The notes: generated from the letters alone by a model not told the origin. Positions 9,932 through 39,464 are shown, counted from the stretch's first letter. The stretch is DNA of 39,464 nt from an uncultured Candidatus Bathyarchaeia archaeon (GCA_964499305.1 CAZCKR010000001.1:1-39464), one strand, 5' to 3'. Numbers and translations: made by a program.

Positions 9932-10208
9932 ACCGTTTTCGCCCTAAATTTATGAGATGAAAAGCATCTATGTTTCCGCGTAGAGGGGACGCGGTTACAA
10001 TCAGTTAATCAAAACCTCCTGCCCTCAAAATGTCACGGGTCTTCGATGGTGGTAAGACTCGCCTCTTAACGTTGGGAAACGCAATGAAACAACGAGTCTT
10101 ACCGGTATTGATAATGTTGAATTCTTTTTAAACCTTGACATGTGTAACCGTACAGAAAATTAATCGGTGACAGCTTTTTCGGCTTCGGACGGGTCTTGGC
10201 TAAGCTAC

Positions 10209-10478
10209 CTAAAACACCTTGTCCTTCTGCTCCGCACGGTAGAGCTTCTTGTAGACGGAGTCCCACTTGCCCTGACTCATCTTGTCGCAGATGTCCTGCA
10301 TGACCTTCCTGAACGCCTTCTTCTGGACCTCGTCCTCGTACTTGTAGTACAGGGCTGAGAGGTCGGCCCAGATCTCCTCTTTTATGGCCTCAAGCTCGAC
10401 GTCGCTGGGCGGAAGTATCTGGTCTATTACCTCTTTAACCATGCCCTTGAAGCCGTTCTGTCTATCATCAGACGCCAT
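10209..10478 (-). CDS. hypothetical protein (helical, acidic/basic)
   Basis: 89-aa ORF with protein-like composition and codon usage. No family recognised. Confidence 0.55.
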   Translation of the reverse strand: MASDDRQNGFKGMVKEVIDQILPPSDVELEAIKEEIWADLSALYYKYEDEVQKKAFRKVMQDICDKMSQGKWDSVYKKLYRAEQKDKVF

Positions 10479-10746
10479 TGGCTACCGGGACACAAACGAC
10501 AAATTGGTTCATATAAGGGTTCCGAGAACAACCCCCCTAATTTATATGTATAGATAAAAATCATCCTTTTCCATCTACAGAATTTATATTTTTAATATAG
10601 ATTAAAATTCTGGTTCCCTGAGATAGATCTACGCCAGGAATCAGGCAACGAAAAAGTGAAAAACCTTTTCTGAAACATAGGCAAAAGCAGGGACTATCGA
10701 TGAAAAATCTTATGATTCAGTGAAAAACATTGAAAACGTGTGAGAG

Positions 10747-12653: not shown

Positions 12654-12741
12654 AGCCACTTTCACTCGCCCCTCCGCTTACTGTATATCTGAACCTACGA
12701 AATGCATAAATTCCTGTCTGCGTCCCCTGAAACGGGGTTAG

Positions 12742-13914
12742 ATGACGCAGCGAGGCATCTTCGTCGACGAGGCCATACTCGACATCAGCTACGTGCCCGA
12801 CGTCATACTCCACCGCGAGGCGGAGTTCAGGGCGCTGGAGAGTCTTTTCGACCACATGGTCGCGGCCCCCTACGAGATGAGCCAGAAAGTCATTATACTC
12901 GGCGGCGTCGGGAGCGGCAAGACCCTCCTGGCCCACTACTACGGGCGGAGCCTCCGCAAGAAGGCCGAGCGCCGCCGCGTCACCTACGAGTACATCCACG
13001 TCAACTGCAGGGAGCAGAGGGGCAGTCTCTTCATGATCCTCAGCCAGGTGGTCAAGCGGCTACGCCCCGAGTTCCCCGAGAGGGGATACGCCGCCAACGA
13101 GCTCATGGACATACTCAGGCAGATCATGGACGAGGACAACGCCCAGATACTCCTAGCCCTGGACGAGGTGGACATCCTCATCGAGAACGAGGGAAGCGAC
13201 GCCCTCTACTACCTCACCAGGTTCCACGAGACCGAGCCAGACGAGCCCCGCCGCCTAAACATCATGTTCATCAGCAAGGACCAGGAGGTCTTCAGGAAGC
13301 TGGACAGGAGCACCCTGAGCAGCCTCCAGCGCAACGTCATAAGGATGCGGGACTACGACCAGGCCCAGCTGGCCGACATACTCCTGTACCGCGTCGAGAA
13401 GGCGTTCAGGAAGGACGCGGTGCCTCCCGAGATAGTGGACTTCATCAGCGAGCTGGCGTACAAGGAGAACAGCGACGCCAGGTACGCCATCGACGTGCTC
13501 CACGGCTCAGGCAGGATGGCTGAGCAGAGCGACGCGCTCCAGATCCAGCCCGAGCACGTCCGGACGGCAGCCATGGGGGTCTTCCAGACCCTGAACAAGG
13601 AGGCGGTCCGGCAGCTCAGCCCCCACGAGAAGCTGGTGCTCCTGGCGGTCGCCCGGTTCTTCAAGGCCAACGACGTGACCCACGGCACCACGGGCGAGAT
13701 CGAGGAAGCCTACCGCCTGGTCTGCGAGGAGTACACGGAGGAGCCCCGGGGCCACACCCAGTACTGGAAGTACCTCAAGAACCTGAAGAGCCTGGACTTC
13801 GTCAACGTCAAGCTACAGGCAAGCAGCCAGGGCAGGACCCAGCTCATCAGCCTGGAGAAGATACCCGCCGAGGAGTTGGAGAAGGAGGTGGCGAGGATCA
13901 TTGATGCGTCGTAG
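12742..13914 (+). CDS. cdc6: Orc1/Cdc6 replication initiator
   Basis: Characteristic N-terminus (LDISYVPDVILHREAEF), Walker A GGVGSGKT, Walker B LALDEVD, sensor regions and a C-terminal winged helix. Confidence 0.93.
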   Translation: MTQRGIFVDEAILDISYVPDVILHREAEFRALESLFDHMVAAPYEMSQKVIILGGVGSGKTLLAHYYGRSLRKKAERRRVTYEYIHVNCREQRGSLFMILSQVVKRLRPEFPERGYAANELMDILRQIMDEDNAQILLALDEVDILIENEGSDALYYLTRFHETEPDEPRRLNIMFISKDQEVFRKLDRSTLSSLQRNVIRMRDYDQAQLADILLYRVEKAFRKDAVPPEIVDFISELAYKENSDARYAIDVLHGSGRMAEQSDALQIQPEHVRTAAMGVFQTLNKEAVRQLSPHEKLVLLAVARFFKANDVTHGTTGEIEEAYRLVCEEYTEEPRGHTQYWKYLKNLKSLDFVNVKLQASSQGRTQLISLEKIPAEELEKEVARIIDAS

Positions 13915-14197
13915 AGAGGAGCGGATGGTCGAGGACATCCTCGGCAGCAGGGGCCGCATCAGGGTGCTTCAGGTGCTCACCGAGAGCGGGGAGCTCAACA
14001 TAAGCGAGGTGAGCCGCCGCACCGGACTCAACTACACGAGCGTGCAGAGGCACCTCATGAAGCTCAAGGAGCTGGGGCTCCTCAAGGAGAAAAGGTACGG
14101 CAAGATCAGGATATTCGAGGTCCAGTTCAGGAGCCTCGGCATAGTATTCGAGAACGGCAGACCCGTGAGCGTCCAGATCCAGGGCCAGAGCCCTTAG
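13904..14197 (+). CDS. small winged-helix (ArsR/TrmB-like) DNA-binding protein
   Basis: RIRVLQVLTESGELNISEVSRRTGLNYTSVQRHLMKLKELGLL is a classic wHTH. Overlaps the cdc6 3' end by 11-14 nt. Confidence 0.7.
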   Translation: MRRREERMVEDILGSRGRIRVLQVLTESGELNISEVSRRTGLNYTSVQRHLMKLKELGLLKEKRYGKIRIFEVQFRSLGIVFENGRPVSVQIQGQSP

Positions 14198-14292
14198 CCG
14201 ATCTCCTCCACGTAAGAGATATGACTAGGACGCCGTAGAGTCTAGGACAGAACCATGAACTACCCGGTCGACCGAGATCCAGACGATGTTTT

Positions 14293-15015
14293 TTGAGAAC
14301 CAGAACCACGTCGCTGACCAGGTTCACCATGTTTTTCCTCGTCTTCATCCTGGCCGTGATGTACCTCGACGTAAGCCATAGGGTGGGCAGGGTCGGCTCA
14401 GCCGTCAAGGTGGCGTACATAGACCCGCTCTACGCGGAGAGCCCGGGGTTCTACGAAGACGTCGACGCGCTGTTCAGTGGCGAGAGATACGTGTTTGAGC
14501 CCACCCTCGGGGACGCCGTCACCGTCGAGCACCTAAGGAGAATCCCCAAGGGGTACGACTTGATCATCCTCCGGGTGCACAGCACCGTAAACGAGGACAT
14601 GGTGTGGTTCTTCACCGGGGAGGAGTACAGCCAAGACAAGTACGTGCTGGAGCAGCTAGTGGACGAGGTCCACCCGGCGAGGCCTAGCCTCGGGTCTGAG
14701 CGTCTCTTCGCCGTCGGCGCGGACTTTGTGAACCACTTCATGGTGGACAGGTTCAGGGGCTCGGTGGTGATGGTCATGGGCTGCGACGGCATCAGGTCCA
14801 CCGACCTGGCCGAGGCTTTCGTCGACAACGGCGCGAGGCTGTACATCAGCTGGGACGGCCCAGTGACTCTGGAGCACACGGACCGCGCCTTCAGACGTCT
14901 AATCGTAGCCATGGCAGAGGAAGGCGTCGAGGAGAAGGAAGCGGTCAGCCTAGTAATGGAGGAGGTTGGCTGCGACCCTGACTACAACTCCTCCATCGCT
15001 TGGTTTCCGCCGTGA
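14293..15015 (+). CDS. membrane-anchored hypothetical protein
   Basis: N-terminal TM anchor (FFLVFILAVMYL) followed by a roughly 200-aa globular domain. No family recognised. Confidence 0.55.
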   Translation: MRTRTTSLTRFTMFFLVFILAVMYLDVSHRVGRVGSAVKVAYIDPLYAESPGFYEDVDALFSGERYVFEPTLGDAVTVEHLRRIPKGYDLIILRVHSTVNEDMVWFFTGEEYSQDKYVLEQLVDEVHPARPSLGSERLFAVGADFVNHFMVDRFRGSVVMVMGCDGIRSTDLAEAFVDNGARLYISWDGPVTLEHTDRAFRRLIVAMAEEGVEEKEAVSLVMEEVGCDPDYNSSIAWFPP

Positions 15016-15140
15016 AACACGTTCTCATGGAGCCGTAAACAGGTTAAGGAAGTATTTTTAAATAGGCTCCGGGTTGTTGAGAGGGTAGAACGCGCAGGTT
15101 AGACATAGCTGACACTGTGCGAAATATAGGCGGAAAACGA

Positions 15141-26743: not shown

Positions 26744-27142
26744 CTAGAGCCAGCTGGCGACCCGCCTGCTCATCGTCTCGTGGAGCGCCTTGTACACCCT
26801 GACGGTCTCCGTGGGGGTCAGCCGGCACTTCAGCTCGTCGGAGAGGAAGGGGAGGACGTTGTGTGCCTTCTCGATTTTGCCGATCCTTGTCCAGGTGACT
26901 TCAACTTGGGCAGGGTAGCTTCGGCCCGACCCCAGGAAGGCGTAGGGGTCCAGGTGTATCCGGGGCTTGGAGGCGGCCTGGAAGGGGCCGTGGAGGCACC
27001 CCGAGTCCAGGTTGTATAGGAAGAGCGGGGTCCCGGGCCTTATCTTCCTGACCTGGTCCCAGTGCCTCTGGGAGTTGCCGAAGAGCCTCTTCCGGAGGCA
27101 CTCATCCATGGTACCGTTGTTGCAGAAGAAGAGGTAGCTCAC
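26744..27142 (-). CDS. stand-alone DCD-domain (PUA-like fold) protein
   Basis: YLFFCNNGTMDECLRKRLFG...IRPGTPLFLYNLDSGCLHGPFQAAS...DPYAF...YPAQVEV matches the signature blocks I recall for the DCD (Dev_Cell_Death) domain: FxCNxxT, LFG, LFLY, HG.F.A.S, PAQV. Confidence 0.6.
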   Translation of the reverse strand: MSYLFFCNNGTMDECLRKRLFGNSQRHWDQVRKIRPGTPLFLYNLDSGCLHGPFQAASKPRIHLDPYAFLGSGRSYPAQVEVTWTRIGKIEKAHNVLPFLSDELKCRLTPTETVRVYKALHETMSRRVASWL

Positions 27143-27365
27143 TCCAAACCCCTGAATGTTTCAGATGCATGTGAAAGAAAAGTGTTTCTTTTGCCCCGCG
27201 ACGGCGCAGAAACACCCATGCGGCAAACCTACAGGTTTCAGCGGGCACCGCATACGTATAGCCTGTTATAAGTTGAACCCACCGTGTTGGAGGCCTGGGC
27301 AGGGTGAAACTGGGCTGCCGGGTGGAAGTATAAGAGCGGCGGTGCCCATGTCTCTCTGAAAGGCT

Positions 27366-28343
27366 TTGAAGGTTCTAGTGGTAAACCCGAGTCTGGCGGA
27401 GAGGATCAGGGACCACCTCCCAGAGGATGTCGAGGTAGTCACGCCCGAGACGGGCACCGACGACGAGCTGGCGGGGTTAGCAGGCGACGTAGAGGTAATA
27501 GTGGCCACCAGGCTGAGCCCCGAGGTGGCTCAGGCGGCGCCCAGGCTGAAGCTGCTGCAGAAGACGGGGGCAGGCGTGGACGACATGCCCTTCGACGCCC
27601 TGAGGGAGGAGACGTGGATGGCGAACACCTCAGGCTCCAACCCGGTGCCCCTAGCCGAGGGAGCAGTGGCCCTGGTATTCGCCCTGGCGAAGAAGGTGAT
27701 CCAGAGGCACGGCAGATTCATGGAGGGCAGGGGCGTCGGACGCGGTGTCCTTCTGAGCGGCAAGAAAGCAGGCATAGTGGGCTTCGGCAGCATCGGGCGG
27801 GAGGTGGGCAGGATGCTCCGGTGTATGGGTATGAGGATACTTGCGGTGAAGCGTAGCAGGGACGACGAGCTCGCCGAGGCCATGGATCTGGAGTTCATGG
27901 GGACCCCCAGCGACCTGATACACGTGATGTCCGAGTCGGACTTCGTCGTCGTCACGGCTCCGCTTACCCCCGAGACCAGGGGCATGATCGGGAAAGAGGA
28001 GCTGCGGGCCATGAAGCCTTCAGCCTATATAGTGAACGTGGCGAGGGCGGCCATCATAGAGGAGGAGCCCCTCTACAGAGCCCTTAGTGAGGGATGGATA
28101 GCGGGTGCCGCAATAGACGTCTGGTGGACGCCCCACTTCTGGGACCCAATGTGGAACAAGGAGGGGAAGCTGGCCTCGGAGTACCCGTTCTGGGAGCTTC
28201 CCAACGTCATATGCACGCCCCACAGCATAGTCTCCAGTGACAGCCGATCCGACGCGGGGCTGAAGATAATGGTGGAGAACATACTAAGGGTCAGGCGGGG
28301 GGAGCCCCCGGTAAACCAGGTGGACAAGAAGCTTAGGTACTAG
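27366..28343 (+). CDS. D-isomer-specific 2-hydroxyacid dehydrogenase (NAD-binding)
   Basis: GIVGFGSIGREVGRML Rossmann motif, NVARAAIIEE, and the catalytic TPH context. Confidence 0.85.
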   Translation: MKVLVVNPSLAERIRDHLPEDVEVVTPETGTDDELAGLAGDVEVIVATRLSPEVAQAAPRLKLLQKTGAGVDDMPFDALREETWMANTSGSNPVPLAEGAVALVFALAKKVIQRHGRFMEGRGVGRGVLLSGKKAGIVGFGSIGREVGRMLRCMGMRILAVKRSRDDELAEAMDLEFMGTPSDLIHVMSESDFVVVTAPLTPETRGMIGKEELRAMKPSAYIVNVARAAIIEEEPLYRALSEGWIAGAAIDVWWTPHFWDPMWNKEGKLASEYPFWELPNVICTPHSIVSSDSRSDAGLKIMVENILRVRRGEPPVNQVDKKLRY

Positions 28344-28360
28344 AAAAGAGGCTCGCGGCT

Positions 28361-30406
28361 CTACGTGGTGCGTTTGTAGTAGCCGGGCCTCGGCGAGTAG
28401 ATGGTGCCGTCCTTCATGAGGACCCCGAATAGCCTAGCGGCCTCGGCTCTCCCGATGCCGTGGTCGCTCTGCAGCGCGTCGTATAGGTCGTCGTCGCGGA
28501 CGCTTCCGCTCACCCTCTCCATCTCGCTTATCACCTGCAGCAGCTTCTGGAGCTGGTTCTGGAGGCTCCGCGGTTTACCTGAGTACAGTATGTCTATGTC
28601 GATCTGGCCTGTCTTGACGTCGATGCCCACCTGCTCCAGGCTTTTCCGCATCAGGTTGATGGCTGCCTCGGCGTCCTCGACGCTTATCTCGGCGCGGAGG
28701 TGGGCCCTGGCGCGGGCCTCGGCGAGCCTGACGAGGCCCTCCAGCTGCCTGGCGGTGATTGCTATGGCGGCGGCTTCGCCTCCCTCGACGCTGGCGTTCC
28801 TCATCTTTACGTAGAAGTCTTTGAAGCGCTCGATGACGTCGTCGGTGATGATGGGGTTGACCTTCTTGGCGTAGCTGATGTACTTCTTGAGGAGCTCCAT
28901 ACTCAGCGGGGCCTCCGCCAACGTCAGCACCCTGTGGAGCCCGAGGATGTGCTCGGCTATGTCGGCGTCCAGCTGGGCGTCGGGCTGGTCCTTGAGTATC
29001 CATATGAGGTCGAACCTGCTGAGGATGGTGACTGGCAGCGTTATGTTCTGGGCGATGGTCTGGTAGGGGTTGTACCGGCCCAGCGACGGGTTCGCCGCCG
29101 CCAGGATGCTTGTCCGCGAGTTGAGGGTGGCCACGATGCCTCCCTTGGCGATGGGAACCACCTGCTGCTCCATGGCGGGGTGTATGGCGCCCCTGTCCTC
29201 GTCCCTCATCTTATCGATCTCGTCGATGCAGCAGACGCCCTTGTCGGCCAGCACCAGGGCGCCCGCCTCCAGCACGAAGCTGCCCGTGCCGCCCTCCTTG
29301 ACGACGGCGGCGGTGAGGCCGGCGGCTGTGCTTCCCCTGCCGGTGGTCATGAGGCCCCTGGGCGCGGCCTTGGATGCGAAGTTGAGCATCTGGCTCTTGG
29401 CGGTGCCCGGGTCACCCACGAGGAGGACGTTGACGTCGCCCCTTATCCTCATGTCGGGCCGCTCCTTGAGGACGCCGCCGAAGAGGAGGTACAGGATGGA
29501 CTCCTTGATGTGCTCGTACCCGTAGATGCTGGGCGCCATGCTGCCCATGAGCTTCCTGAACACCCAGGGGTCGTTGGCCACCTCCAGGATCGCCTCCTCG
29601 TCCTCGGGGCTGATCTCCATGAGATCCATCTCCCTGCCGCTTATCTCCGTGTAGCTGGCGTCCACCTGGATCTCGAAGGTGCGGAGCTCGCCGCCCCTGC
29701 CGTACCGTGGGAGCAGCTTGATGAACCCCGTGAGGGTGATCCTGTCGCCGGGGCGGGCTATGTCCACGAGGTCGTCCTTGAGCTCCACGTGGATGCTCCG
29801 CGGCAGCTGGCCGGGGGGAAGGTCCTCGGGCCGCTCCTGTATGCTGATGTTCTGGCTGTCGATGAACACCGACTCCCTGGGGACGAGCTCGAAGCCCTTC
29901 CTGTTGTCGCAGGCGAGGCACTTCTGGGGCTTCTGAATGGTCTGGCCGCTCTGCTCGATGTGGTTCATCTCGCCGCAGACGGAGCACCTGAACGTCGCCT
30001 TTACGACGAGAGGCATGACGCTGCTGGCGCGGACGATGATGCCGCGGGCCATGATCAGGCGGCCGATGTGGTCGGCGCCTATGCGGCGGAGCGGCGTCTC
30101 GGCGGGAAGGTTCCTGTACCTGACGTTGATCCTGTTCAGGCTCTCGGCGTAGATGGGGTCCCTGGTGCGGAGCTTGCTCCTGACTATGGACTCGAAGATG
30201 GGGGTGAGGCTCTCAGGGTCGTCGAGTATGACGCGTGCCAGCTCCATGTCGAAGGTGTAGACGTCGGTGAAGTCGACTACGATGCTCTTGGTGCCCCTGA
30301 CGGGCATCTCGGCGACGGCTTGGTCGTACTTGTACCGCTCCTCGGCGTCCATGAAGTCCTCTATGAACCGGGTGAAGGCTTCCTCGAAGGTGTCCTGCCG
30401 GGCCAA
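28361..30406 (-). CDS. mcm: MCM replicative helicase
   Basis: Zn motif CSVCGE...CLACDN, Walker A GDPGTAKSQ, Walker B CCIDEIDKM, arginine finger SRFDL, and a C-terminal wH domain. Starts with TTG directly after the GINS stop. Confidence 0.95.
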   Translation of the reverse strand: MARQDTFEEAFTRFIEDFMDAEERYKYDQAVAEMPVRGTKSIVVDFTDVYTFDMELARVILDDPESLTPIFESIVRSKLRTRDPIYAESLNRINVRYRNLPAETPLRRIGADHIGRLIMARGIIVRASSVMPLVVKATFRCSVCGEMNHIEQSGQTIQKPQKCLACDNRKGFELVPRESVFIDSQNISIQERPEDLPPGQLPRSIHVELKDDLVDIARPGDRITLTGFIKLLPRYGRGGELRTFEIQVDASYTEISGREMDLMEISPEDEEAILEVANDPWVFRKLMGSMAPSIYGYEHIKESILYLLFGGVLKERPDMRIRGDVNVLLVGDPGTAKSQMLNFASKAAPRGLMTTGRGSTAAGLTAAVVKEGGTGSFVLEAGALVLADKGVCCIDEIDKMRDEDRGAIHPAMEQQVVPIAKGGIVATLNSRTSILAAANPSLGRYNPYQTIAQNITLPVTILSRFDLIWILKDQPDAQLDADIAEHILGLHRVLTLAEAPLSMELLKKYISYAKKVNPIITDDVIERFKDFYVKMRNASVEGGEAAAIAITARQLEGLVRLAEARARAHLRAEISVEDAEAAINLMRKSLEQVGIDVKTGQIDIDILYSGKPRSLQNQLQKLLQVISEMERVSGSVRDDDLYDALQSDHGIGRAEAARLFGVLMKDGTIYSPRPGYYKRTT

Positions 30407-30910
30407 CTACTCCTCCCCTACCTCACGCATGGTGTCACGCCATTCTGTGACGATTCGGTGAATGTTCTGGTATAAGTCGGCCTCATCTTTCGAGAGCAGA
30501 GAGGCAGATGAATCTGCCTCTGATGACGCTAACCTCATGATGCGTCCGATCCTGGACTCAAGTATCTCCCTGTACCGGGCCCTCATCCTGTTGAGCTGAG
30601 CAGCCTTCTCAGGGTCGCCCTTGACTTGGGAGAAGCTTTGGTAGGCCCGCTCGTAGAAGTCCTCGGGTAGCTGGCTGGGCGGCCCCGCGGGGTTGATGCG
30701 CTCCTTGAAGTGGACCTGGGTCCACTCCGTCTGGCTGACCGCCGGCTCGGAGTACTCTGCGAGGCCGACCTTCACCAGCTCCTGAGCGACCCAGAGCCAG
30801 GTCACGAACTCGTGGCCCTCCTGCACCTCAGGGAGAGCTATCCCAGGCGTCTGTATCCGCGGAAGCTTCTTCAGCGCTCTAAGCTTTACATCTGCGTTCT
30901 CGTACTTCAT
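30407..30910 (-). CDS. GINS subunit (Gins23-like)
   Basis: FVTWLWVAQELVKVGLAEY, FYERAYQ, ILESRIGRIMRLA and DEADLYQNI resemble archaeal GINS A/B-domain blocks. It sits immediately upstream of mcm, as in Sulfolobus. ATG at 30910 (MKYEN) is preferred over the track start at 30988. Confidence 0.7.
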   Translation of the reverse strand: MKYENADVKLRALKKLPRIQTPGIALPEVQEGHEFVTWLWVAQELVKVGLAEYSEPAVSQTEWTQVHFKERINPAGPPSQLPEDFYERAYQSFSQVKGDPEKAAQLNRMRARYREILESRIGRIMRLASSEADSSASLLSKDEADLYQNIHRIVTEWRDTMREVGEE

Positions 30911-31023
30911 ATGGGCTACCCGAGAATGTTGATGGATCATTCGATGACAGACATATAGAACTATTCTGGCGGCTGATGAGAGAGTCAAGATGGTTTAAAA
31001 CCCGCGGCCCCAAATGAACAGGG

Positions 31024-31695
31024 ATGCAATCCACCTTGAGCGACCACCCGAGTATAGAAGCCATGGCGGAGAAGGTCAGGAGCCTCACCAGAGACCCCAG
31101 GGTGAAGAAGATGGTGGAGGACCGCATGGACGAGTTCAGACGCGTCCACTTGATGGACAGCCAGAAATGGTACGAGGAGCTAGTCTACTGCCTGCTAACG
31201 GCCTACAGCAGCGCGTTGATGGGGCAGCGCTGCGTCGACGCCCTCCTCGAAGGCTCCCTCATGGAGGGAAGCCTGGAGGACGTCAGGGAGTGCCTCTTAG
31301 AGGAGGGGCACAGGTTCGCTAACAGGCGCGCCGAGTACATCTACGACACAAGGGAGCTAGCCCCCAGGATCAAGGACATCATCCAGGGCTTCGACGACCC
31401 CAGGGACGCCCGGGAGTGGCTCGTCAAGAACGTCAAGGGCCTCGGCTGGAAGGAGGCGAGCCACTACCTTCGCAACGTGGGCTACTTCGGCCTCGCCATC
31501 ATAGACCGCCACATACTAAGCAACATGGTGGAGCACGGCCTCATCACCGAGGAGGAGTCCAAGAAAGGCCTCACCAGGAAACGCTACCACGCCTACGAGG
31601 AGATCCTCGAGAAGGTGGCGCGGCGGCTCGGCTTGGAGCCCGGGGAGCTGGACCTCTACCTCTGGTACCGGAAGACCGGCAAGGTATTGAAGTAG
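31024..31695 (+). CDS. ogg: N-glycosylase/DNA lyase (archaeal Ogg, Ogg2 family)
   Basis: HhH motif VKGLGWKEASHYLRNVGYFGLAIIDRHIL. Size about 200-220 aa. Confidence 0.8.
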   Translation: MQSTLSDHPSIEAMAEKVRSLTRDPRVKKMVEDRMDEFRRVHLMDSQKWYEELVYCLLTAYSSALMGQRCVDALLEGSLMEGSLEDVRECLLEEGHRFANRRAEYIYDTRELAPRIKDIIQGFDDPRDAREWLVKNVKGLGWKEASHYLRNVGYFGLAIIDRHILSNMVEHGLITEEESKKGLTRKRYHAYEEILEKVARRLGLEPGELDLYLWYRKTGKVLK

Positions 31696-31737
31696 ATTCA
31701 TATCTACGCGGCCCAACAAGTTGGTGGGTGCCCCTTT

Positions 31738-32823
31738 TTGAAGGTCAAGATAGACGGCGAGACCCGGGAGCTCTACACCCTCTGGCGGGAGGGCGAGACG
31801 GTGAAGATGATAGACCAGAGGAAGCTCCCCCACAGGTTCGAGATCGCAGGCTTCGGCGACCACCGAGCCACCGCCGCCGCGATAAAGGACATGGTGTGCA
31901 GAGGAGCCGGCGCCGTTGGCTGTGCCGCCGGCTACGCCATGGCTCAGGCCGCCTTGGAGGCTAAGGACGTGTCTCTTCAGGAGTTTCTGGCCTACCTGGA
32001 GGATGCAGCGGAGACGGTCCGTGGGACTAGGCCCACCGCCGTGAACCTGTTCCACGCCGTCGAGCGTTGCCTCGAAGCCTGCAGGGAAGGCTCCGTGATG
32101 GAGCGCGTCGAGAACGTGCTGTGCATGGCGGACCTGATAGCGGAGGACGACCTCGAGGCATCCAGGAGGATGGGTGAGATCGGCGCCGGCCTCATAGCGG
32201 ATGGCTGCAGGGTGCTCACCCACTGCAACGCGGGGGCGCTGGCGTTCATAGACCACGGCACCGCCCTGAGCCCGGTGAGGGTGGCCCACGGGCAGGGTAA
32301 GAGGGTGTTCGTCTGGGTAGACGAGACGCGGCCACGCTGCCAGGGCTCCAGGCTCACGGCGTGGGAGATGGAGCAGGAGGGCATACCCTACGCCATCATA
32401 GTGGATAACGCGGCGGGCTACTACATGAGGCGCGGCGAGGTGGACATGGTCATAGTGGGGGCCGACAGGGTGGCCGCCAACGGCGACGTCGCCAACAAGA
32501 TAGGCACCTACGAGAAGGCCGTGGTGGCCAAGGCCAACGGGGTACCCTTCTACGTCGCGGCGCCGGAGATGACCTTCGACCTGAGTACACCCACAGGCGA
32601 CGACATAGAGATCGAGGAGCGAAGCCCCGAGGAGGTAACAACGATGTGGGGGCTAGCCGACGACGGCGGGCATACACGTGTGTTGATCCCAGGGAAGGGC
32701 TCATCCGCCAGGAACCCGGCGTTCGACGTGACGCCAGCCGGCTACATAACCGGTTTCATTACGGAGAAAGGGCTGATTAAGCCGCCCTACAAGGAAAAAA
32801 TAGTAGAGACTTTCAGGAAATAG
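31738..32823 (+). CDS. mtnA: S-methyl-5-thioribose-1-phosphate isomerase (aIF-2B-I family)
   Basis: MIDQRKLPH, THCNAG and GADRVAANGDVANKIGTY motifs. TTG start. Confidence 0.85.
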   Translation: MKVKIDGETRELYTLWREGETVKMIDQRKLPHRFEIAGFGDHRATAAAIKDMVCRGAGAVGCAAGYAMAQAALEAKDVSLQEFLAYLEDAAETVRGTRPTAVNLFHAVERCLEACREGSVMERVENVLCMADLIAEDDLEASRRMGEIGAGLIADGCRVLTHCNAGALAFIDHGTALSPVRVAHGQGKRVFVWVDETRPRCQGSRLTAWEMEQEGIPYAIIVDNAAGYYMRRGEVDMVIVGADRVAANGDVANKIGTYEKAVVAKANGVPFYVAAPEMTFDLSTPTGDDIEIEERSPEEVTTMWGLADDGGHTRVLIPGKGSSARNPAFDVTPAGYITGFITEKGLIKPPYKEKIVETFRK

Positions 32824-33211
32824 CGGCCTCTACCTCAAGGTACGCCTGCTTGTGCGTCAGGAGCCCAAGCAGCACGGGCTTCGAGGCCAGGTTTCCTACT
32901 ATGGGGAGCCTGTCCACGTCTTTCTCGTCCATGATCATCAGCGCCTCCTCGTTGGGCAACCCGCTCTCCACCCAGTACAGAGGCTCGGACATGACGTCCC
33001 GGACTGGTACCAGGTGAGGGTCGCTCTTCTCGGAGTCGACCTTCCGCGCTATGTCGCCGTCAGTGAGCATGCCCACGGGCTCGCCTTCCAGGGTGACCAC
33101 CAGGCACTCGGCCCTGAAGTACTTCATGAGGCTGTCAGCGTACTTGACGGGATAGTCAGCCCTGATGGTTATGGCGTCCTGGAGAACCAGATCCTCTAAT
33201 CGACGCGGCAT
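32813..33211 (-). CDS. CBS-domain pair protein
   Basis: Two CBS repeats (VVTLEGEPVGMLTDGDIARKV; DVDRLPIVGN). ATG at 33211 is preferred over 33268. Confidence 0.75.
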   Translation of the reverse strand: MPRRLEDLVLQDAITIRADYPVKYADSLMKYFRAECLVVTLEGEPVGMLTDGDIARKVDSEKSDPHLVPVRDVMSEPLYWVESGLPNEEALMIMDEKDVDRLPIVGNLASKPVLLGLLTHKQAYLEVEAAIS

Positions 33212-33382
33212 CTCTAAGTGGCTCCGGTACCCATTAACCGGTTTTATAGGATATCGTTTGTGGAGCAAAGAAACGTACCCGGGTAACCTTCTACCGATAT
33301 AGATTCGTGGTCTGTTACGGTGGGCGGCTCGGGCTGACCAAATCGCTTAAATCGTTGTACCTGTCATTTTCTCGGTGTCCCG

Positions 33383-33499
33383 CCCGCCCTAGCTCAATGG
33401 CAGAGCATCCGGCTGTAGTCGTCGCCCCGCGGGGCGGTGGCGTTCAGGCCATGAGCAGACACCGGAGGGTTGCAGGTTCAACTCCTGCGGGCGGGACCA
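33383..33499 (+). tRNA. tRNA-Tyr(GUA) with a 42-nt intron after position 37 (33419-33460); CCA encoded
   Basis: Hand-folded cloverleaf: acceptor CCCGCCC/GGGCGGG (C1-G72, the archaeal Tyr identity pair), D stem GCTC/GAGC, anticodon stem TCCGG/CCGGA, loop CT-GTA-G[intron]A, T arm GCAGG-TTCAACT-CCTGC, discriminator A, CCA. Confidence 0.85.
33462..33499 (+). repeat. attL: 38-nt 3' half of tRNA-Tyr, repeated at 39285-39322
   Basis: CCGGAGGGTTGCAGGTTCAACTCCTGCGGGCGGGACCA matches 39285-39322 at 37 of 38 positions (G33472 vs A39295). Confidence 0.85.
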
Positions 33500-33584
33500 T
33501 CTTCTAGTCATCGAATCATCTGGGTTGTATTAACAATCCCTGATAAAACTTAGAGGAAGTCTGTATTCATTGACGTTTGGTAAA

Positions 33585-33598
33585 TGGTAGCCCGGAAG
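33585..33598. repeat. 14-nt direct repeat TGGTAGCCCGGAAG (3' end of tRNA-Gln, read on + strand), copy 1
   Basis: Exact second copy at 38580-38593. Together they bracket the tRNA-Gln body and both R-M genes. Confidence 0.55.
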
Positions 33599-33660
33599 AG
33601 ATTCGAACTCTTGACAGAGGCTCCAGAGGGCCCGATCCTTGACCGCTAGACGACCGGGCT
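33585..33660 (-). tRNA. tRNA-Gln(CUG), element-borne, weak stems and one anticodon-stem mismatch (possibly decaying)
   Basis: Reverse complement AGCCCGG-TC-GTCT-AGCGGTCAA-GGAT-C-GGGCC-CTCTGGA-GCCTC-TGTC-AAGAG-TTCGAAT-CTCTT-CCGGGCT-A-CCA. It has the archaeal Gln-type A1-U72. The D stem has two G-U pairs, the T stem is AT-rich, and positions 30:40 are C-C. Confidence 0.65.
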
Positions 33661-33769
33661 ACAGCACAACCAATGAAAATAAAGCGATAATACAAAGCAG
33701 TATAAGATGTGTTAAGACAGTTTACAGAGAGTTATAGAAAATAATTTGTATCTTATTTGCAATTAGATT

Positions 33770-33777
33770 CTAAATAT
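33770..33777 (+). promoter_or_regulatory. candidate TATA box (CTAAATAT) for the R-M operon
   Basis: About 20-27 nt upstream of the ATG at 33797, consistent with a leaderless transcript. The whole region is AT-rich, so specificity is low. Confidence 0.25.
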
Positions 33778-33796
33778 GGGAGCGTAACTTATCTTC

Positions 33797-36700
33797 ATGG
33801 CATTTGATAAAGGTAGAGAGTTCATTAGTTCTTTAATCGAATCGTTTGAAAAAAATCACTCAGATTATTTAAATGAATCATATAATGAGACTCAATTAAG
33901 AAATGATTTTCTCAATCCTTTTTTACGTGCCTTAGGCTGGGATATTGAAAATAGAGCGCAAAAAACACATTATTTGCGTGATGTAATTCAAGAATATGGA
34001 TTATTGGATGATGATTATCAATCCAATAAACGGCCTGATTATACAATTCGACGTAATGAAAAAAGAAAATTTTTTATTGAAGCTAAAAAACCCTCGGTTC
34101 ACATAGAATCTAATGCTGCTGCAGCCTTTCAGACCAGGCGTTATGGTTGGTCTGCACAACTACCGATTTCTGTACTCACAAACTTTGAATATTTAATAAT
34201 TTATAACTGCAGAACAAAACCTAATCAAAGCGACAACGAAAGACACTCTCGTTTTCGTGTCTATCACTACTCTGAATATCTAGAACAGTATGATGAAATC
34301 TATGAAATGTTGTCTTGCGAATCAATGTATTCTGGGGCTTTCGATGACAAATTCATCACGGATGAAATGCATCCCGATCAAGAAGAGTTCGATGAATATT
34401 TCCTTGAACAAATAGAGCGTTGGAGGTTGATGATTGCCTCAGATATTCACAGAAGCAATACACTGGATAGCCATGAATTAAATTATGTAGTTCAAAAATT
34501 AATCAATAGGTTATTATTTTTAAGAATATGCGAAGATAGGGATATTGAAAAATATGAGTTATTAAAAAATGTATCCGATTATGAAACACTAAAAAGGATA
34601 TTCATTGAGTCTGATGAACGTTATAATTCAGGAGTATTTGATTTAATAGAAGATAAATTAGTAAATGAGGTAGCAATAAATGATGAAACATTAATTTCTA
34701 TTTTTAATGAACTCTATTATCCTCATTGTCCTTATACATTTAGTGTTCTTGATGCTCATATTTTAGGAGAAATATATGAGGAGTTTTTAGGTAAATATAT
34801 AGATATTAAAGATGGAGAACTACAATTAATAGAAAAATCTGAAATAAGAGAATCTAAAGGAGTAGTTCCCACTCCAAAATATGTTGTTGATTATATAATT
34901 GAAAAGACCTTATTGCAATATGAGACTTTGAGCTATGATGATTTGATAAATAAAAAAATGATTGATATTTCATGTGGTTCAGGAGTTTTTCTATTATCCT
35001 TATTTGATCATATATGTGAATATTGTTTAAATTGGTTGATGAATGATGGAATTGAAAATCATCTAGATAAAGTGTATAGAGAATCTGAAGATAAGTATAT
35101 GTTAAAATTAAAAACAAAAACAGAAATTCTTACCAATACAATATTTGGTGTCGATATTGACGACCAGGCAGTTGAAGTTACCAGATTTGGCCTATTAATA
35201 AAACTGATTGAAAATGAATCAAAGGAAACTATTGATGGTTACATTCAAGAAATAAAAACAAAGGCATTACCTAACTTATATGACAATATTAAATGCGGGA
35301 ATAGTTTAGTTGATGATTCGTTTTATTCATTCGATAAGAGTGCAATAGGTTCTCATAAGATTATAAACTTAGTTAGGCCTTTCAATTGGGACAAAGAGTT
35401 TAAGGAAATAATGTCAAATGGAGGCTTTGATGTTATCGTTGGAAATCCTCCATACTTGAGAGTCCAACGTATGGAAGAGTACATCCCCCACGAGCATTCC
35501 TATTATAAAAGTAAACATTGTCCTTATTTGTCCAAACATAAAAGTGTAGACAAATATTACTACTTTTTCGAAAGAGGAATAGAATTATTAAAAGATGGAG
35601 GAAAACTAGGTTTTATTTCACCTCATAAATACTTAATTTTAGATGCTGCAGAGAAACTGAGATGTTTAATAGGTGATAATCATTATCTTAAACATATTAC
35701 TCATTTTCATACTGAACAAGTATTTAAGAAAAAGACTACTACTTATGTTGCTATAACAGTCTTAGAAAAAACCCATAATGAATATTTTGATGTATCTCAT
35801 GTTAGTGACCTTAGTCGCTGGATGAACAATAAAACTTCAACTATAGTAACTTATAGAAACGAAGATTATGGATGTAAATCTTGGGTATTCATAAAACCTG
35901 AGTTACAAACCTTTTTTGATGATCTCAGCGAACGTATTCCCATTAAACTTGAAGATGAGTGTGAGATTTTTGTTGGGCTTCAGACTAGTAAAGATCCAAT
36001 TTACATCCGCACCCCAATCGACCAAACTAAAGACCATATTATTATCCGAGATATTAACGATGACGAGTGGCAATGGGAAAAAGAAATACTGAAGCCCATG
36101 CTAAAAGATGTTACGTTAAGGCCCTTTGGACCTGTAGCACCAAATAGCTACGTTATTTTTCCTTATCATATTGAAGATGGTAAAGCTATAATTTATACAA
36201 TCGAAGAGATGCAGAATAGTTTTCCAGGAGTCTGGGCATATTTAACTAATCATCAGGAACTTTTAGAAAGTCGAAGTATTAATCCAGAGGGTACTCCCGA
36301 ATGGTATAGATTTGGCAGGTCTCAAAGTTTAACCAAGTTTAACACTCCAAAATTAATATGCACCACTTTGTCACTTGGTCCGAACTATGTTTATGACGTT
36401 GATAATAACTACATTACGGGTGGCGGAAATGGTCCATACTATGCCATCCGAATACTCAAAGGCAAATCACTTTCACTTCAATACATACATGCTGTTATTT
36501 CGAATCCAATTCTTGAAGCCTTTGTTAAGAAAGGGGCCAGTCATTTTAGGGGGGATTACTATTCTCATGGGAAGATGTACATAGCCAATATACCTCTATA
36601 TGTACCCGATCTTGAAAACCCTGCTGAGAAGGAGCTTTATGATAATATTATAGAGTTAGTCAACTCTCACTACATAACTGTTTCAAATTATTGTGGAGCG

Positions 36701-36832
36701 AGAACGCCATCTCGAAAAAGACTTTACAAAGATCAGATAATTGAGCAACGAAAAGAAATTGATCGTCTTGTGAATACCTTATATGGGTTCACGAATGATG
36801 ATATGAAGTTAGCAGAATCGTTGCTCATGTAG
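33797..36832 (+). CDS. type IIG restriction-modification enzyme (Eco57I-like): N-terminal PD-ExK nuclease + gamma-class N6-adenine MTase + C-terminal target-recognition domain
   Basis: HsdR_N-like nuclease block RPD81YTI...FFIE95AK97. Helical linker NRLLFLRICEDRDI. MTase motif X GVVPTPKYVVDYI, motif I IDISCGSGVFLL, and motif IV VGNPPY (aa 550-553, nt 35444-35455). TaqI-C-like TRD (WYRFGRSQ, YYSHGKMYI). Confidence 0.85.
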   Translation: MAFDKGREFISSLIESFEKNHSDYLNESYNETQLRNDFLNPFLRALGWDIENRAQKTHYLRDVIQEYGLLDDDYQSNKRPDYTIRRNEKRKFFIEAKKPSVHIESNAAAAFQTRRYGWSAQLPISVLTNFEYLIIYNCRTKPNQSDNERHSRFRVYHYSEYLEQYDEIYEMLSCESMYSGAFDDKFITDEMHPDQEEFDEYFLEQIERWRLMIASDIHRSNTLDSHELNYVVQKLINRLLFLRICEDRDIEKYELLKNVSDYETLKRIFIESDERYNSGVFDLIEDKLVNEVAINDETLISIFNELYYPHCPYTFSVLDAHILGEIYEEFLGKYIDIKDGELQLIEKSEIRESKGVVPTPKYVVDYIIEKTLLQYETLSYDDLINKKMIDISCGSGVFLLSLFDHICEYCLNWLMNDGIENHLDKVYRESEDKYMLKLKTKTEILTNTIFGVDIDDQAVEVTRFGLLIKLIENESKETIDGYIQEIKTKALPNLYDNIKCGNSLVDDSFYSFDKSAIGSHKIINLVRPFNWDKEFKEIMSNGGFDVIVGNPPYLRVQRMEEYIPHEHSYYKSKHCPYLSKHKSVDKYYYFFERGIELLKDGGKLGFISPHKYLILDAAEKLRCLIGDNHYLKHITHFHTEQVFKKKTTTYVAITVLEKTHNEYFDVSHVSDLSRWMNNKTSTIVTYRNEDYGCKSWVFIKPELQTFFDDLSERIPIKLEDECEIFVGLQTSKDPIYIRTPIDQTKDHIIIRDINDDEWQWEKEILKPMLKDVTLRPFGPVAPNSYVIFPYHIEDGKAIIYTIEEMQNSFPGVWAYLTNHQELLESRSINPEGTPEWYRFGRSQSLTKFNTPKLICTTLSLGPNYVYDVDNNYITGGGNGPYYAIRILKGKSLSLQYIHAVISNPILEAFVKKGASHFRGDYYSHGKMYIANIPLYVPDLENPAEKELYDNIIELVNSHYITVSNYCGARTPSRKRLYKDQIIEQRKEIDRLVNTLYGFTNDDMKLAESLLM

Positions 36833-36840
36833 GAGTCCTT

Positions 36841-38490
36841 ATGTCTGGCAAGGAAACGGAACAAAAACTACGTGGTGGGTATTACACTCCTAGAGAAATT
36901 ACTGATTTCATTTGTGACTGGGCGATTATCTCGGAAACTGATATAGTCCTGGAACCAAGTTGTGGCGACGGCAGATTTCTCGAATCAATAATAGAAAAGT
37001 TGCATTCTAAAGGATGTTCCATGGATAAAATATCAGAAAATGTTCATGCCGTTGAATTATATCCTAAAGAGGCAAAAAAAGCAGTTGATAATTTATTAAA
37101 GTTGGGTGTTCCTAATGCACAGGATATTGTAAAAGTCTCTGACTTTTTCTTATACTACGAGTCTGAAATAAACAAGACCCAGTTTGATGTTGTTGTGGGA
37201 AATCCTCCCTTTATCAGGTACCAAAATTTTCCAGTAGAGTATCGCGAACGTGCAATCCGTAATATGAAGAAACTAGGGCTAAATCCTAACAGATATACGA
37301 ATACGTGGGTTCCTTTTCTTGTACTTTCTATTGATCTTTTGAAGCCCGGTGGGCGAATTGGTATGATTATACCTGCTGAATTATTCCAGGTAGGATATGC
37401 ATCAGAAACTAGAGAATTTTTGAGTGCTCATCTTGACAACTTGACCATTATAATGTTTAAAAAACTGTTATTCAAATCAGTGCAACAAGAAGTTGTGCTG
37501 GTTCTCGGTGAAAAAAACCAGTCTCTTAATCCTAAAATTCGAATAGTTGAGTTTGAAAATCTCTATGATTTATCTAATTTTACTAATAGTAGGATTAATT
37601 TGAACTCACTAAATTTGAACGAATATAAACCATTAATCAAATCTGATGAAAAATGGACACAATATTTCCTTGATACTAGTGAAATTAAATTTCTAAATAA
37701 AATGAAAAAAAATCCTCATATAACATGGTCAAATGAATACTATGATGTTGATGTAGGGGTGGTTACTGGAAGAAATAATTTTTTTATTTTGAGTAAGGAT
37801 GAAGTTGAAGAAAAAGGACTTGAATCTGAGGTCATACAAATTGTGACTCGGTCCTCTCATCTCAAAGGTTTAATTTTCGAAAAAAATGATTTTATCGATA
37901 ATATTGAATCTGGTTATTCCTCTTATCTTTTTAGACCTTCTCCCATTAAGGGTCTTTCAGATTCTGCAGTTACGTATATTAAAGAAGGTGAAAAATCGAA
38001 TTACCATTTAGGGTATAAGTGTAGAATTAGGGATCCTTGGTATATTGTGCCAACTTTATGGGTTCCTGATGCATTTATGCTTCGGCAGGTCCATGATTTT
38101 CCCAAATTAATTGCGAATCAAACGAATGCCACATGTACGGATACAATTCATCGTGTAAAGTTCAAGAAAGAAACTCAGTTAACCATAATACCTGCTTTTA
38201 TGAATTCATTGACCTATGCATTTTCTGAAATCACTGGAAGGAGCTATGGAGGCGGTGTACTGACATTTGAACCAAGTGAAGCCGAACGTTTACCAATACC
38301 TAATAAAAACCACGATATCTTAGATATTGAAAAATCTGATGCCATTTTACGTACTCAAGGTATTGACGCTGTTCTCGATTATCATGATAATATTTTGCTT
38401 AAAAAGGGTCTTGGTATGAGTGATCCCGAGATATCAGTTCTAAGAGCCATTTGGCAAAAGTTACGTGATAGACGAATAAACCGAAAATAA
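36841..38490 (+). CDS. stand-alone N6-adenine DNA methyltransferase (Eco57I-M-like companion methylase)
   Basis: GGYYTP motif X, motif I LEPSCGDGRFL, motif IV VGNPPF (nt 37201-37212), and a C-terminal YGGGVLTFEPSEAERLPIP block typical of this MTase family. GGAG 8 nt upstream of the ATG and 8 nt after the upstream stop. Confidence 0.85.
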   Translation: MSGKETEQKLRGGYYTPREITDFICDWAIISETDIVLEPSCGDGRFLESIIEKLHSKGCSMDKISENVHAVELYPKEAKKAVDNLLKLGVPNAQDIVKVSDFFLYYESEINKTQFDVVVGNPPFIRYQNFPVEYRERAIRNMKKLGLNPNRYTNTWVPFLVLSIDLLKPGGRIGMIIPAELFQVGYASETREFLSAHLDNLTIIMFKKLLFKSVQQEVVLVLGEKNQSLNPKIRIVEFENLYDLSNFTNSRINLNSLNLNEYKPLIKSDEKWTQYFLDTSEIKFLNKMKKNPHITWSNEYYDVDVGVVTGRNNFFILSKDEVEEKGLESEVIQIVTRSSHLKGLIFEKNDFIDNIESGYSSYLFRPSPIKGLSDSAVTYIKEGEKSNYHLGYKCRIRDPWYIVPTLWVPDAFMLRQVHDFPKLIANQTNATCTDTIHRVKFKKETQLTIIPAFMNSLTYAFSEITGRSYGGGVLTFEPSEAERLPIPNKNHDILDIEKSDAILRTQGIDAVLDYHDNILLKKGLGMSDPEISVLRAIWQKLRDRRINRK

Positions 38491-38579
38491 TTACTTAAAT
38501 TTATAGTGTGCGCGAAACCGTTTAAGAACCCTCTTCCATTAAAAGAACCCATATAACAACCCTTTTCAGGAGATTTGGG

Positions 38580-38593
38580 TGGTAGCCCGGAAG
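38580..38593. repeat. 14-nt direct repeat TGGTAGCCCGGAAG, copy 2 (isolated tRNA-Gln 3'-end fragment)
   Basis: Exact match to 33585-33598. The flanking sequence is not tRNA-like. Confidence 0.55.
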
Positions 38594-38721
38594 GTACTAT
38601 ATTATCCAAGCCTCTACCAGATAATTAACTTAATCGAACCTTTTTCGAGTATCAATTCACTTTAAACCATCCCCTCGATTCATCAAACAGGTAACCCATT
38701 GACGCGCAACGGGGCACCGCC

Positions 38722-39269
38722 TTGAGGGGATACATCTTCACCGAGACCGAGCGAAAGATGCTGAGAAAATGGATCGAAAAAGGAGAGGAACCCAAGACAG
38801 CCACAGTGCTGTTCTCCAGAATGAGAAGAACCAAACCCACACTCATGGAGGACATCAAACTCTACTTAGACACGAGAAAACGCCTGGTCGCACAACATCG
38901 CTGGAGATTAAACGTACCCCACACCCTAATCACCAGACATCTAGAAGGACTCGCATCGACCCCCACCAGAAGAGAAGAACCTACATAGACAGGCTCGAAC
39001 AACTCTGGGCCCAGCTGGACACCATAATCACAGACCCGGAAACCGACCAGCGCACCCGCATCAAAGCCATGAACACCCTCATGCGCTGCCTCCAAATCGC
39101 CTACGGAATGGTAGAGGCAATCGAAATAGAGCAGATCGAGAAAGACATCAGGAAACTCGAAGAACAGGTAGCCCAAGAGGAGCACCTCGGGTACAAGCAA
39201 CCCGGAGACACACACACCCATAAAAAACCTCAAAGTTACCGCCCACTGTTACCAACACACAGACCATAA
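38722..39269 (+). pseudogene. frame-disrupted small element gene (two overlapping coding-like frames)
   Basis: Frame A (38722-38988) begins MRGYIFTETERKMLRKWIEKGEEPK... Frame B becomes protein-like only from about 38980 (YIDRLEQLWAQLDTIITDPETDQRTRIKAMNTLMRCLQIAYGMVEAIEIEQIEKDIRKLEEQ) and has no start codon there. This suggests one gene broken by a frameshift. Confidence 0.4.
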
Positions 39270-39284
39270 AACGAGAGGCAGCCC

Positions 39285-39322
39285 CGGAGGGTTACAGGTT
39301 CAACTCCTGCGGGCGGGACCAC
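39285..39322 (+). repeat. attR: displaced copy of the tRNA-Tyr 3' half
   Basis: CCGGAGGGTTACAGGTTCAACTCCTGCGGGCGGGACCA. No upstream tRNA 5' half. The A at 39295 would break the T stem. Confidence 0.85.
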
Positions 39323-39464
39323 TTCTCGCGGGTGTTCAAAACTCTAGTATTATAACTGGGATCACGTTCATTGTTCTCGGTATAGCTGTCTGGGGTGTGG
39401 ACGCTGAAGCACGGCTATCTGGTAGGCATATCGGTTCTTTTACTGTGCTCAGTGGTCGCGTTTG

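Follow-up and report, generated by a model that had tools for sequence, protein, structure and literature searches.

Restriction-modification (R-M) genes flanked by direct repeats, as well as minimal units of a restriction gene, a modification gene, and an integrase gene in tRNA genes, have been described (Furuta, Abe & Kobayashi 2010, PMC2853133), and the attachment site of an incoming element (attP) can span a whole tRNA gene (PMC2853133). Here we analyze a related arrangement in a 39,464-nt stretch of DNA from an uncultured Candidatus Bathyarchaeia archaeon (GCA_964499305.1, CAZCKR010000001.1:1-39464), referred to below as the window. Between positions 33585 and 38593, it contains a low-GC module that consists of a tRNA-Gln gene and two R-M genes, is bounded by a 14-nt direct repeat, and sits inside another element located at a host tRNA-Tyr gene. 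Like the units of PMC2853133, the module is a low-GC R-M pair with direct repeats that match a tRNA 3′ end, and it was detected by comparison with genomes that lack the pair. Unlike those units, it contains neither an integrase nor an integrase relic, its repeat is 14 nt rather than 45-49 nt long, and its host is an archaeon. Moreover, the complete tRNA gene is found in the insert and not in the target, and the target is an integrated element rather than a chromosomal tRNA gene.

Other described elements share some of these features. Tycheposons of Prochlorococcus combine tRNA-specific tyrosine recombinases with partial tRNAs (bioRxiv 10.1101/2020.12.28.424599). The Bathyarchaeia locus resembles them in having a tRNA seed, partial tRNA copies, degenerate integrase-less elements, and foreign flanking DNA beside the tRNA, but it has no recombinase, and the complete tRNA in its inner unit differs in identity from the seed. 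Relative to a classic tRNA-targeting integrative element, the inner module has the bounding tRNA 3′ repeats but lacks a recombinase gene and carries the tRNA inside the unit, whereas the outer island has the attachment-site (att) repeats, an intact tRNA, and an empty site and lacks only the integrase. Cis-mobilizable elements (CIMEs) are att-flanked islands without recombination genes, defined in Firmicutes relative to a cognate integrative and conjugative element (ICE) or integrative and mobilizable element (IME) with which they share att sites. Both layers of the present locus are similar to CIMEs in having att-like direct repeats and no integrase, and their mobility would require a recombinase in trans; unlike CIMEs, they have no known cognate partner, and CIMEs do not have a tRNA gene inside the unit. 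Defense hotspots of P2 and P4 were reportedly described by Rousset and colleagues in 2022, with old among the cargo of the P2 hotspot. As in such hotspots, conserved flanks here enclose alternative antivirus cargo (R-M genes in the window, an OLD-family nuclease and an HNH endonuclease in the related locus L008). In contrast to the P2/P4 and Pseudomonas core hotspots, however, the host belongs to the Bathyarchaeia, the backbone is shorter than 0.8 kb and has no identifiable phage genes, and one cargo includes a tRNA gene and repeats. An earlier interpretation made from the DNA alone (the sequence-only reading) had proposed that such a cassette is not a standard described class of element. This claim was overstated, as repeat-flanked R-M units, whole-tRNA attP sites (PMC2853133), and CIMEs had already been reported.

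The 14-mer TGGTAGCCCGGAAG is present in exactly two copies in the window (33585-33598 and 38580-38593), both on the plus strand, and no further copies with up to 2 mismatches were found there. The left copy coincides with the 3′ end of a tRNA-Gln(CUG) gene on the minus strand, on which ARAGORN and Rfam agree, and comprises the CCA, the discriminator A, the 7-nt 3′ strand of the acceptor stem, and 3 nt of the T stem. This tRNA scores 40.9 bits in Rfam against a gathering score of 29 and displays a Gln anticodon (CUG), an A1-U72 pair, a discriminator A, and an encoded CCA; we take the A1-U72 pair and the encoded CCA to mark it as archaeal-type. Its T stem is AT-rich, unlike that of the host tRNA-Tyr. 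The gene is the sole GC-rich piece of the module (60% GC versus 29-37% around it). Between the two 14-mers there is only the tRNA body and the two R-M genes. The repeat-bounded unit measures 4995 bp with 33.6% GC, compared to 59.5% for the first 33.4 kb of the window, which is chromosomal. The account of the repeat and of the unit's contents given in the sequence-only reading was thus accurate, as judged by a sequence scan, ARAGORN, and Rfam.

Comparison with related genomes places the tRNA-Gln gene in the insert. A tRNA-Tyr gene occurs at the homologous position in ~20 relatives, whereas tRNA-Gln is seen only in contigs of the window lineage (ARAGORN with intron detection). This tRNA-Gln gene belongs to the inserted module and is not a host gene at the locus. 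The Gln codons of the module are mostly CAA (20 CAA versus 7 CAG in the restriction gene, R, and 9 versus 6 in the methyltransferase gene, M), in contrast to 63 CAG and 2 CAA in four host genes. The CUG-reading tRNA thus does not serve to supplement the decoding of its CAA-rich cargo. Because of the GC content (34% versus 60%), the CAA-biased Gln codons, and the absence of tRNA-Gln from the locus in ~20 relatives, the assignment of the R-M and tRNA-Gln segment as a foreign module is supported.

Both R-M genes can be assigned to known types. The R open reading frame (ORF) matches Pfam Eco57I (2.4e-40), HSDR_N (8.8e-12), and N6_Mtase, an architecture with an N-terminal HSDR_N nuclease of the PD-(D/E)XK type followed by a gamma-class N6-adenine methyltransferase. 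PADLOC assigns it to REase_MTase_IIG over its full length (982 bits over residues 9-1003), and its matches in the PDB are adenine methyltransferases. The M ORF matches Pfam M_Eco57I_C (PF22837; 1.3e-39) and N6_Mtase (1.4e-19), as well as PADLOC MTase_II (609 bits). Since both ORFs are intact and align with the models over their full length, a role in R-M defense is likely. Most likely, judging from these matches, the module now serves as an ordinary fixed R-M defense locus with an extra, possibly functional, tRNA-Gln. The spacer between tRNA-Gln and the divergently oriented R gene (33661-33796) presumably carries the promoters of both.

The module is contained in a second layer. The last 38 nt of the tRNA-Tyr gene (33462-33499, attL) recur at 39284-39321 with 37/38 identity, and therefore all of 33500-39321 is bracketed by tRNA-Tyr att-like repeats. 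We compared window positions 27000-39464, extended rightward with contig L001, to 23 related Bathyarchaeia loci by blastn. In L004 and L005 (~91% nucleotide identity), tRNA-Tyr is followed directly by the homologue of position 39322 onward, leaving one att copy at a clean, empty site, and eight more relatives lack the island. These comparisons show that the outer island is real and that it predates the module or at least arose independently of it. It is best explained as a degenerate element without an integrase that integrated at the host tRNA-Tyr 3′ end. These empty sites, together with relatives in which the same backbone holds other cargo, bear out the nesting that the sequence-only reading had proposed. 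The intron of tRNA-Tyr sits after position 37, and default ARAGORN overlooks the gene; tRNA and intron are conserved at the locus in ~20 Bathyarchaeia relatives.

Outside the module, the island is reduced to a backbone of an 85-nt left arm and a right arm of ~0.7 kb with two small ORFs, ORF-A (38722-38988) and, in the -1 frame, ORF-B (about 38985-39269). Substitutions in ORF-B are biased toward third positions (22/33). Neither ORF has a match in Pfam, PHROGs, or PADLOC, scans of viral contigs were empty, and the only match in the PDB, to the N-terminal part of a transcriptional regulator, is insignificant (E = 0.44). Homologues of both are present in contig L087 (39-664 and 567-1403), where they have 46% identity, retain the -1 offset, and lie directly upstream of a gene for a terminase large subunit. 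Given this neighbor, the backbone may descend from a head-tailed virus or satellite, with the outer island as a possible remnant of a head-tailed provirus or satellite. It is also possible that ORF-A and ORF-B together form a small-terminase-like gene whose frameshift or overlap is conserved. Separately, the N-terminal ~50 residues of ORF-A (MRGYIFTE...) recur with ~40% identity at the start of PAS-domain proteins of 231 aa, which are encoded in lower-GC patches of contigs with 60-65% GC (L088-L091; e.g., L090 3509-4204).

No recombinase or integrase domain was detected with Pfam in the module, the outer island, or any ORF of the 39.4-kb window, in agreement with the description of the module as integrase-less in the sequence-only reading. 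The island in L008 and L100, which is the sole other complete copy, also contains no integrase; those in L084 and L085 are covered for the recovered contig parts only. Both layers are thus att-flanked and without genes for recombination or transfer.

The backbone is found in four other lineages (L008/L100, L084, L085, and L105), and the slot junction is kept in three of the four, each with different low-GC DNA. L008 (85% identity) and the identical L100 carry the island, with homology that reaches 33585 and resumes from 38602; the left homology block spans window 27312-33585 and L008 5587-11879. In place of the R-M module, L008 contains a 3.16-kb cargo of 20-34% GC (11880-15043, identical in L100) that encodes a KTSC-domain protein, a 635-aa OLD-family nuclease (AAA_15 and OLD TOPRIM; AriA/Old/GajA in PADLOC), and a 201-aa HNH endonuclease. 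L084 and L085 were recovered by searching metagenomes with ORF-A and ORF-B, and L105 by an antisense-ORF look-up of the right arm, whose matches were confined to L100, L105, and further contigs of the window lineage. Similar look-ups of the CBS protein and a 166-aa ORF gave no match, probably because these genes had been annotated with different start codons or on the opposite strand. L084, L085, and L105 each have a right arm of ~90% identity, then a decayed copy of tRNA-Tyr, and downstream of it the same dehydrogenase gene. The right arm is preceded by yet other low-GC DNA in L084 and L085, where the cargo is incomplete and has no assigned identity; the L105 contig stops at window 38638, short of the junction. 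Across these genomes, the interval between the two arms is thus a slot that holds at least four different sets of DNA, two of them recognizable defense systems.

The junctions of this slot coincide with the 14-mers. On the left, ...GGTAAAT continues with GGTAGCC in the window and with CTCGTAT in L008, a position that is the same to the base. On the right, the window reads ...TTTGGG, then TGGTAGCCCGGAAG, then GTACTATATTATCCAAG, whereas L084 reads ...CCCGTTTA, then CGGAAG, then ATACCATATATTCCAAG, and L008 joins at TTATCCAAG. The homology breakpoints are therefore located exactly at 33585 on the left (33585/33586) and within 38588 (L084) to 38602 (L008) on the right, which substantiates the view that the 14-mers bound the module. 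The L084 backbone keeps CGGAAG, the last 6 nt of the 14-mer, and L008 only its first T. The CGGAAG in the L084 arm weakly suggests that a target sequence may have been present beforehand. The sequence-only reading had also noted AT-rich sequence beyond both repeats and had concluded that the true boundaries are uncertain. The AT-rich sequence is there, but the uncertainty is not upheld, as the conservation of 33500-33584 and 38594-38700 in relatives shows them to be backbone arms outside the module. The features of the locus are collected in Table 1.

Table 1. Features of the tRNA-Tyr island and the nested R-M module (window coordinates)
Feature	Coordinates	Strand	Evidence
Host tRNA-Tyr(GTA), 42-nt intron, encoded CCA	33383..33499	+	Rfam tRNA 54.9 bits, aragorn -i
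Left arm of backbone, 85 nt, 35% GC	33500..33584	.	Kept in L008/L100 as far as the last base preceding the module
14-mer copy 1, left module edge	33585..33598	+	TGGTAGCCCGGAAG; left homology breakpoint versus L008 33585/33586
tRNA-Gln(CUG)	33585..33660	-	ARAGORN, Rfam
AT-rich spacer, 29% GC, tRNA-Gln to divergently oriented R gene	33661..33796	.	GC
Type IIG restriction-modification enzyme (R), Eco57I-like, 1011 aa, intact	33797..36832	+	Pfam, PADLOC
Companion M.Eco57I-like DNA methyltransferase (M), 549 aa, intact	36841..38490	+	Pfam, PADLOC
89-nt spacer, M stop codon to second 14-mer; right module end	38491..38579		
14-mer copy 2 (orphan), right cargo/backbone junction	38580..38593	+	Junction comparisons
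Right arm of backbone, ORF-A and ORF-B	38594..39283	+	88-90% identity in L008/L100, L084, L085, L105
attR, copy of last 38 nt of tRNA-Tyr (37/38)	39284..39321	+	Empty sites L004/L005

Read in the direction of the tRNA itself, the order is orphan 14-mer, M, R, and complete tRNA, with the orphan upstream of the tRNA. This order excludes ordinary integration into a resident tRNA-Gln gene. The best fit to the geometry is a circle that recombined via its own tRNA 3′ end by means of a tRNA-end-specific recombinase, acting in trans or since deleted, and we give this explanation about an even chance. A circular module containing tRNA-Gln, R, and M would have met a slot that held a matching 14-bp sequence. 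One reciprocal crossover between the terminal 14 bp of the tRNA-Gln 3′ end and the 14 bp of the slot would then leave the direct repeats as scars and the complete tRNA inside the repeat-bounded unit. The enzyme would most likely be a tyrosine recombinase specific for tRNA ends, supplied in trans or later lost by deletion. In this account, the circular intermediate, the 14-mer already present in the slot, and the enzyme are what we infer.

This proposal predicts a circle junction of the form ...CAGGAGATTTGGG-TGGTAGCCCGGAAG-AGATTCGAACTC... and an empty slot of the form ...GTTTGGTAAA-TGGTAGCCCGGAAG-GTACTATATTATCC..., and a number of observations weigh against it. Neither predicted sequence was found in the viral-contig scans, and none of the recovered relatives has a backbone in which the slot is empty and only one 14-mer is present; the uninterrupted target envisaged by the sequence-only reading was accordingly missing from both the viral contigs and the recovered backbone copies. 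Exact-protein look-ups of R and M did not find a second copy of the module with different flanks, and blastn of 33500-38700 gave no match in plasmid and phage collections. The search for the 5-kb unit in other surroundings, or in plasmids, phages, or viral contigs, thus returned only copies at the same locus. The module is not known to have a cognate integrase. The right junctions vary among lineages by up to ~30 nt, that of L085 being ~30 nt further in. In L008, nothing resembling the 14-mer was detected at up to 3 mismatches, and no repeat flanks the cargo, so turnover of the slot does not generally proceed via the 14-mer site. The tRNA-Gln score is modest, a C-C mismatch in the anticodon stem leaves the stems not all paired, and the fold of minimum free energy is other than the cloverleaf (z = -0.57). 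The best non-self homologue of R among 5.8 billion proteins has 48% identity, and most others have ~45%. Lastly, the window contains ~13 unrelated exact 14-nt direct repeat pairs elsewhere, and 16% of block shuffles of 33000-39464 hold an exact 14-nt direct repeat.

Other results of these searches concern the origin of the module. The exact look-ups of R and M returned only same-locus contigs from several metagenomes, 99.9-100% identical, and as all of the 100% R matches are from this locus, the module seems to be fixed in that population. Neither the 3′ half nor the 5′ half of tRNA-Gln was matched in exact-pattern scans of viral contigs. The few R homologues that carry a source name are all bacterial. 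The R-M relative with 48% identity (P0002; L096-L099) is located on a contig of 40-48% GC beside a tyrosine integrase, a 401-aa ORF, and a helix-turn-helix regulator, in a context with no tRNA and no similarity to the arms. Its position next to a tyrosine integrase indicates that this R-M lineage does travel on integrative elements.

The abundance of 14-nt repeats in the window and in its shuffles means that the 14-mer repeat is not significant by itself, and it could be a coincidence unrelated to the arrival of the module. We nevertheless consider this very improbable. The left copy is the exact tRNA end, and both copies fall on breakpoints that are set independently from other genomes, which places the repeat beyond chance; by our own estimate, a random 14-mer pair in a 6.5-kb region would share both positions with a probability of ~1e-6 to 1e-7. 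A native host tRNA-Gln, beside which the R-M genes were inserted, would suit a host that uses CAG almost exclusively and thus needs a CUG-reading tRNA-Gln, and the tRNA is of archaeal type. This idea is scarcely credible in view of the relatives: ~20 of them, including the two with 91% nucleotide identity, have tRNA-Tyr without a tRNA-Gln nearby, so the synteny with tRNA-Tyr in island-free genomes that would have argued for a host gene is not seen. In addition, the tRNA-Gln lies within an island that is missing from the empty sites, and its AT-rich T stem differs from that of tRNA-Tyr.

The geometry could also have arisen without a dedicated recombinase, if circular or concatemeric DNA with tRNA-Gln, R, and M joined the slot by illegitimate or RadA-type short-homology recombination at a chance 14-bp identity, the tRNA end being used as the only GC-rich, stably annealing stretch of an AT-rich molecule. 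This would be in keeping with the lack of an integrase in the window, the frequency of chance 14-nt identities, the tRNA as sole GC-rich segment of the module, and other cargos that share no att sequence. We regard it as possible but unlikely, since the target is in a slot with repeated cargo turnover and not at a random genomic site, and the identity block stops exactly at the CCA terminus of the tRNA, a ~1-in-5000 module position and a signature of tRNA-type att sites. Integrase att sites show the same exact end point, and for this reason we favor a tyrosine recombinase over short homology. Alternatively, the whole stretch between the arms, both 14-mers included, may have been imported by homologous recombination in the arms from another backbone copy, for example, in a virus or satellite of a low-GC host; the 14-mer pair would then stem from an older event in the donor or from imprecise excision with donor flanks. 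The arms are 88-90% identical across lineages, with unrelated slot DNA in the three that keep the junction, and the left junction is the same to the base in the window and L008. The ORF-A and ORF-B homologues adjoin a terminase gene, and the backbone may stem from a virus pool. The process would resemble the donor-flank capture model for tycheposon islands (bioRxiv 10.1101/2020.12.28.424599). However, import through the arms merely shifts the origin of the repeat elsewhere, where recombination of the circle type would still be needed, and a donor backbone with this cargo was not found. We would assign it a minor share of the probability, well short of that given to the tRNA-end recombination of a circle.

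Further candidates were rejected. Target-site duplication by a transposon or casposon is not compatible with the absence of terminal inverted repeats, a transposase, or Cas1; the only inverted match between the module ends is the acceptor-stem complement, and the 14 nt that complete a tRNA could not have come by chance from a duplicated target, which excludes this mechanism. The right arm is not a decayed tRNA-Gln, as it does not align with the tRNA body and no tRNA signal was detected at E<=10 in 38450-38800; a long target duplication is therefore excluded as well. A split integrase of the Sulfolobus spindle-shaped virus (SSV) type was dismissed because no ORF runs into either att copy. On the sense strand of the R-M genes, the orphan 14-mer is complementary to the tRNA 3′ end, as a primer-binding site (PBS) would be, but this interpretation was set aside because no reverse transcriptase is present.

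A second indel polymorphism was observed at the locus. Only the window lineage, L004, and L005 have a gene for a predicted secreted or surface protein of 682-728 aa (window 39400-39464, L001 5701-7887) between attR and the gene for the NAD-binding dehydrogenase; in the other relatives, tRNA-Tyr or attR is joined straight to the dehydrogenase gene. Independent metagenome assemblies (L001, L002, L003, L102-L104) break at the tRNA-Tyr att copies or just past tRNA-Gln, with contig ends at 33362, 33381, 33695, 39324, and 39413, which fits graph breaks induced by repeats or strain variation. The remainder of the window is an archaeal chromosome with genes for MCM, GINS, Orc1/Cdc6, ribosomal proteins, mevalonate-pathway enzymes, a hydrogenase, and glutamyl-tRNA synthetase (GluRS). 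A 132-aa ORF at 26744-27142 on the minus strand matches the Dev_Cell_Death (DCD) domain PF10539 (E = 2.2e-25), a domain that is mainly described in plants and thus unusual in an archaeal chromosome. The segment at ~9931-10746 has a GC content of 0.40-0.49 and no long ORF in the translated frame (16 stops), and is located upstream of a methyltransferase-like gene that matches spermidine synthase.

Bathyarchaeia are an abundant uncultured group of sediments whose mobile elements and defense islands have, to our knowledge, barely been described. At this locus, the tRNA-Tyr site is empty in some genomes and occupied in others, a tiny backbone with no recombinase has been retained across lineages, and a slot within that backbone swaps AT-rich DNA. 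In two lineages, this DNA is identifiable defense cargo, which extends the picture of defense hotspots in phage and satellite remnants to the Bathyarchaeia. The inverted geometry of the inner module, with a complete tRNA inside a repeat-bounded unit that lacks an integrase, is uncommon. It is conceivable, though in our judgment improbable, that the module represents a class of minimal recombinase-less archaeal cassettes, each composed of a tRNA gene and a defense system and using the 3′ end of its own tRNA as attP. In such a class, a trans-acting integrase specific for tRNA ends would excise circles and insert them, within the slots of proviruses or satellites, into short look-alikes of tRNA ends; functionally, this would parallel integron cassettes, the tRNA gene taking the role of attC. 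If the inverted geometry, of which this locus is so far the one instance, proved general, it would point to a cassette-like route for the spread of defense genes that needs only a tRNA end and a shared recombinase.

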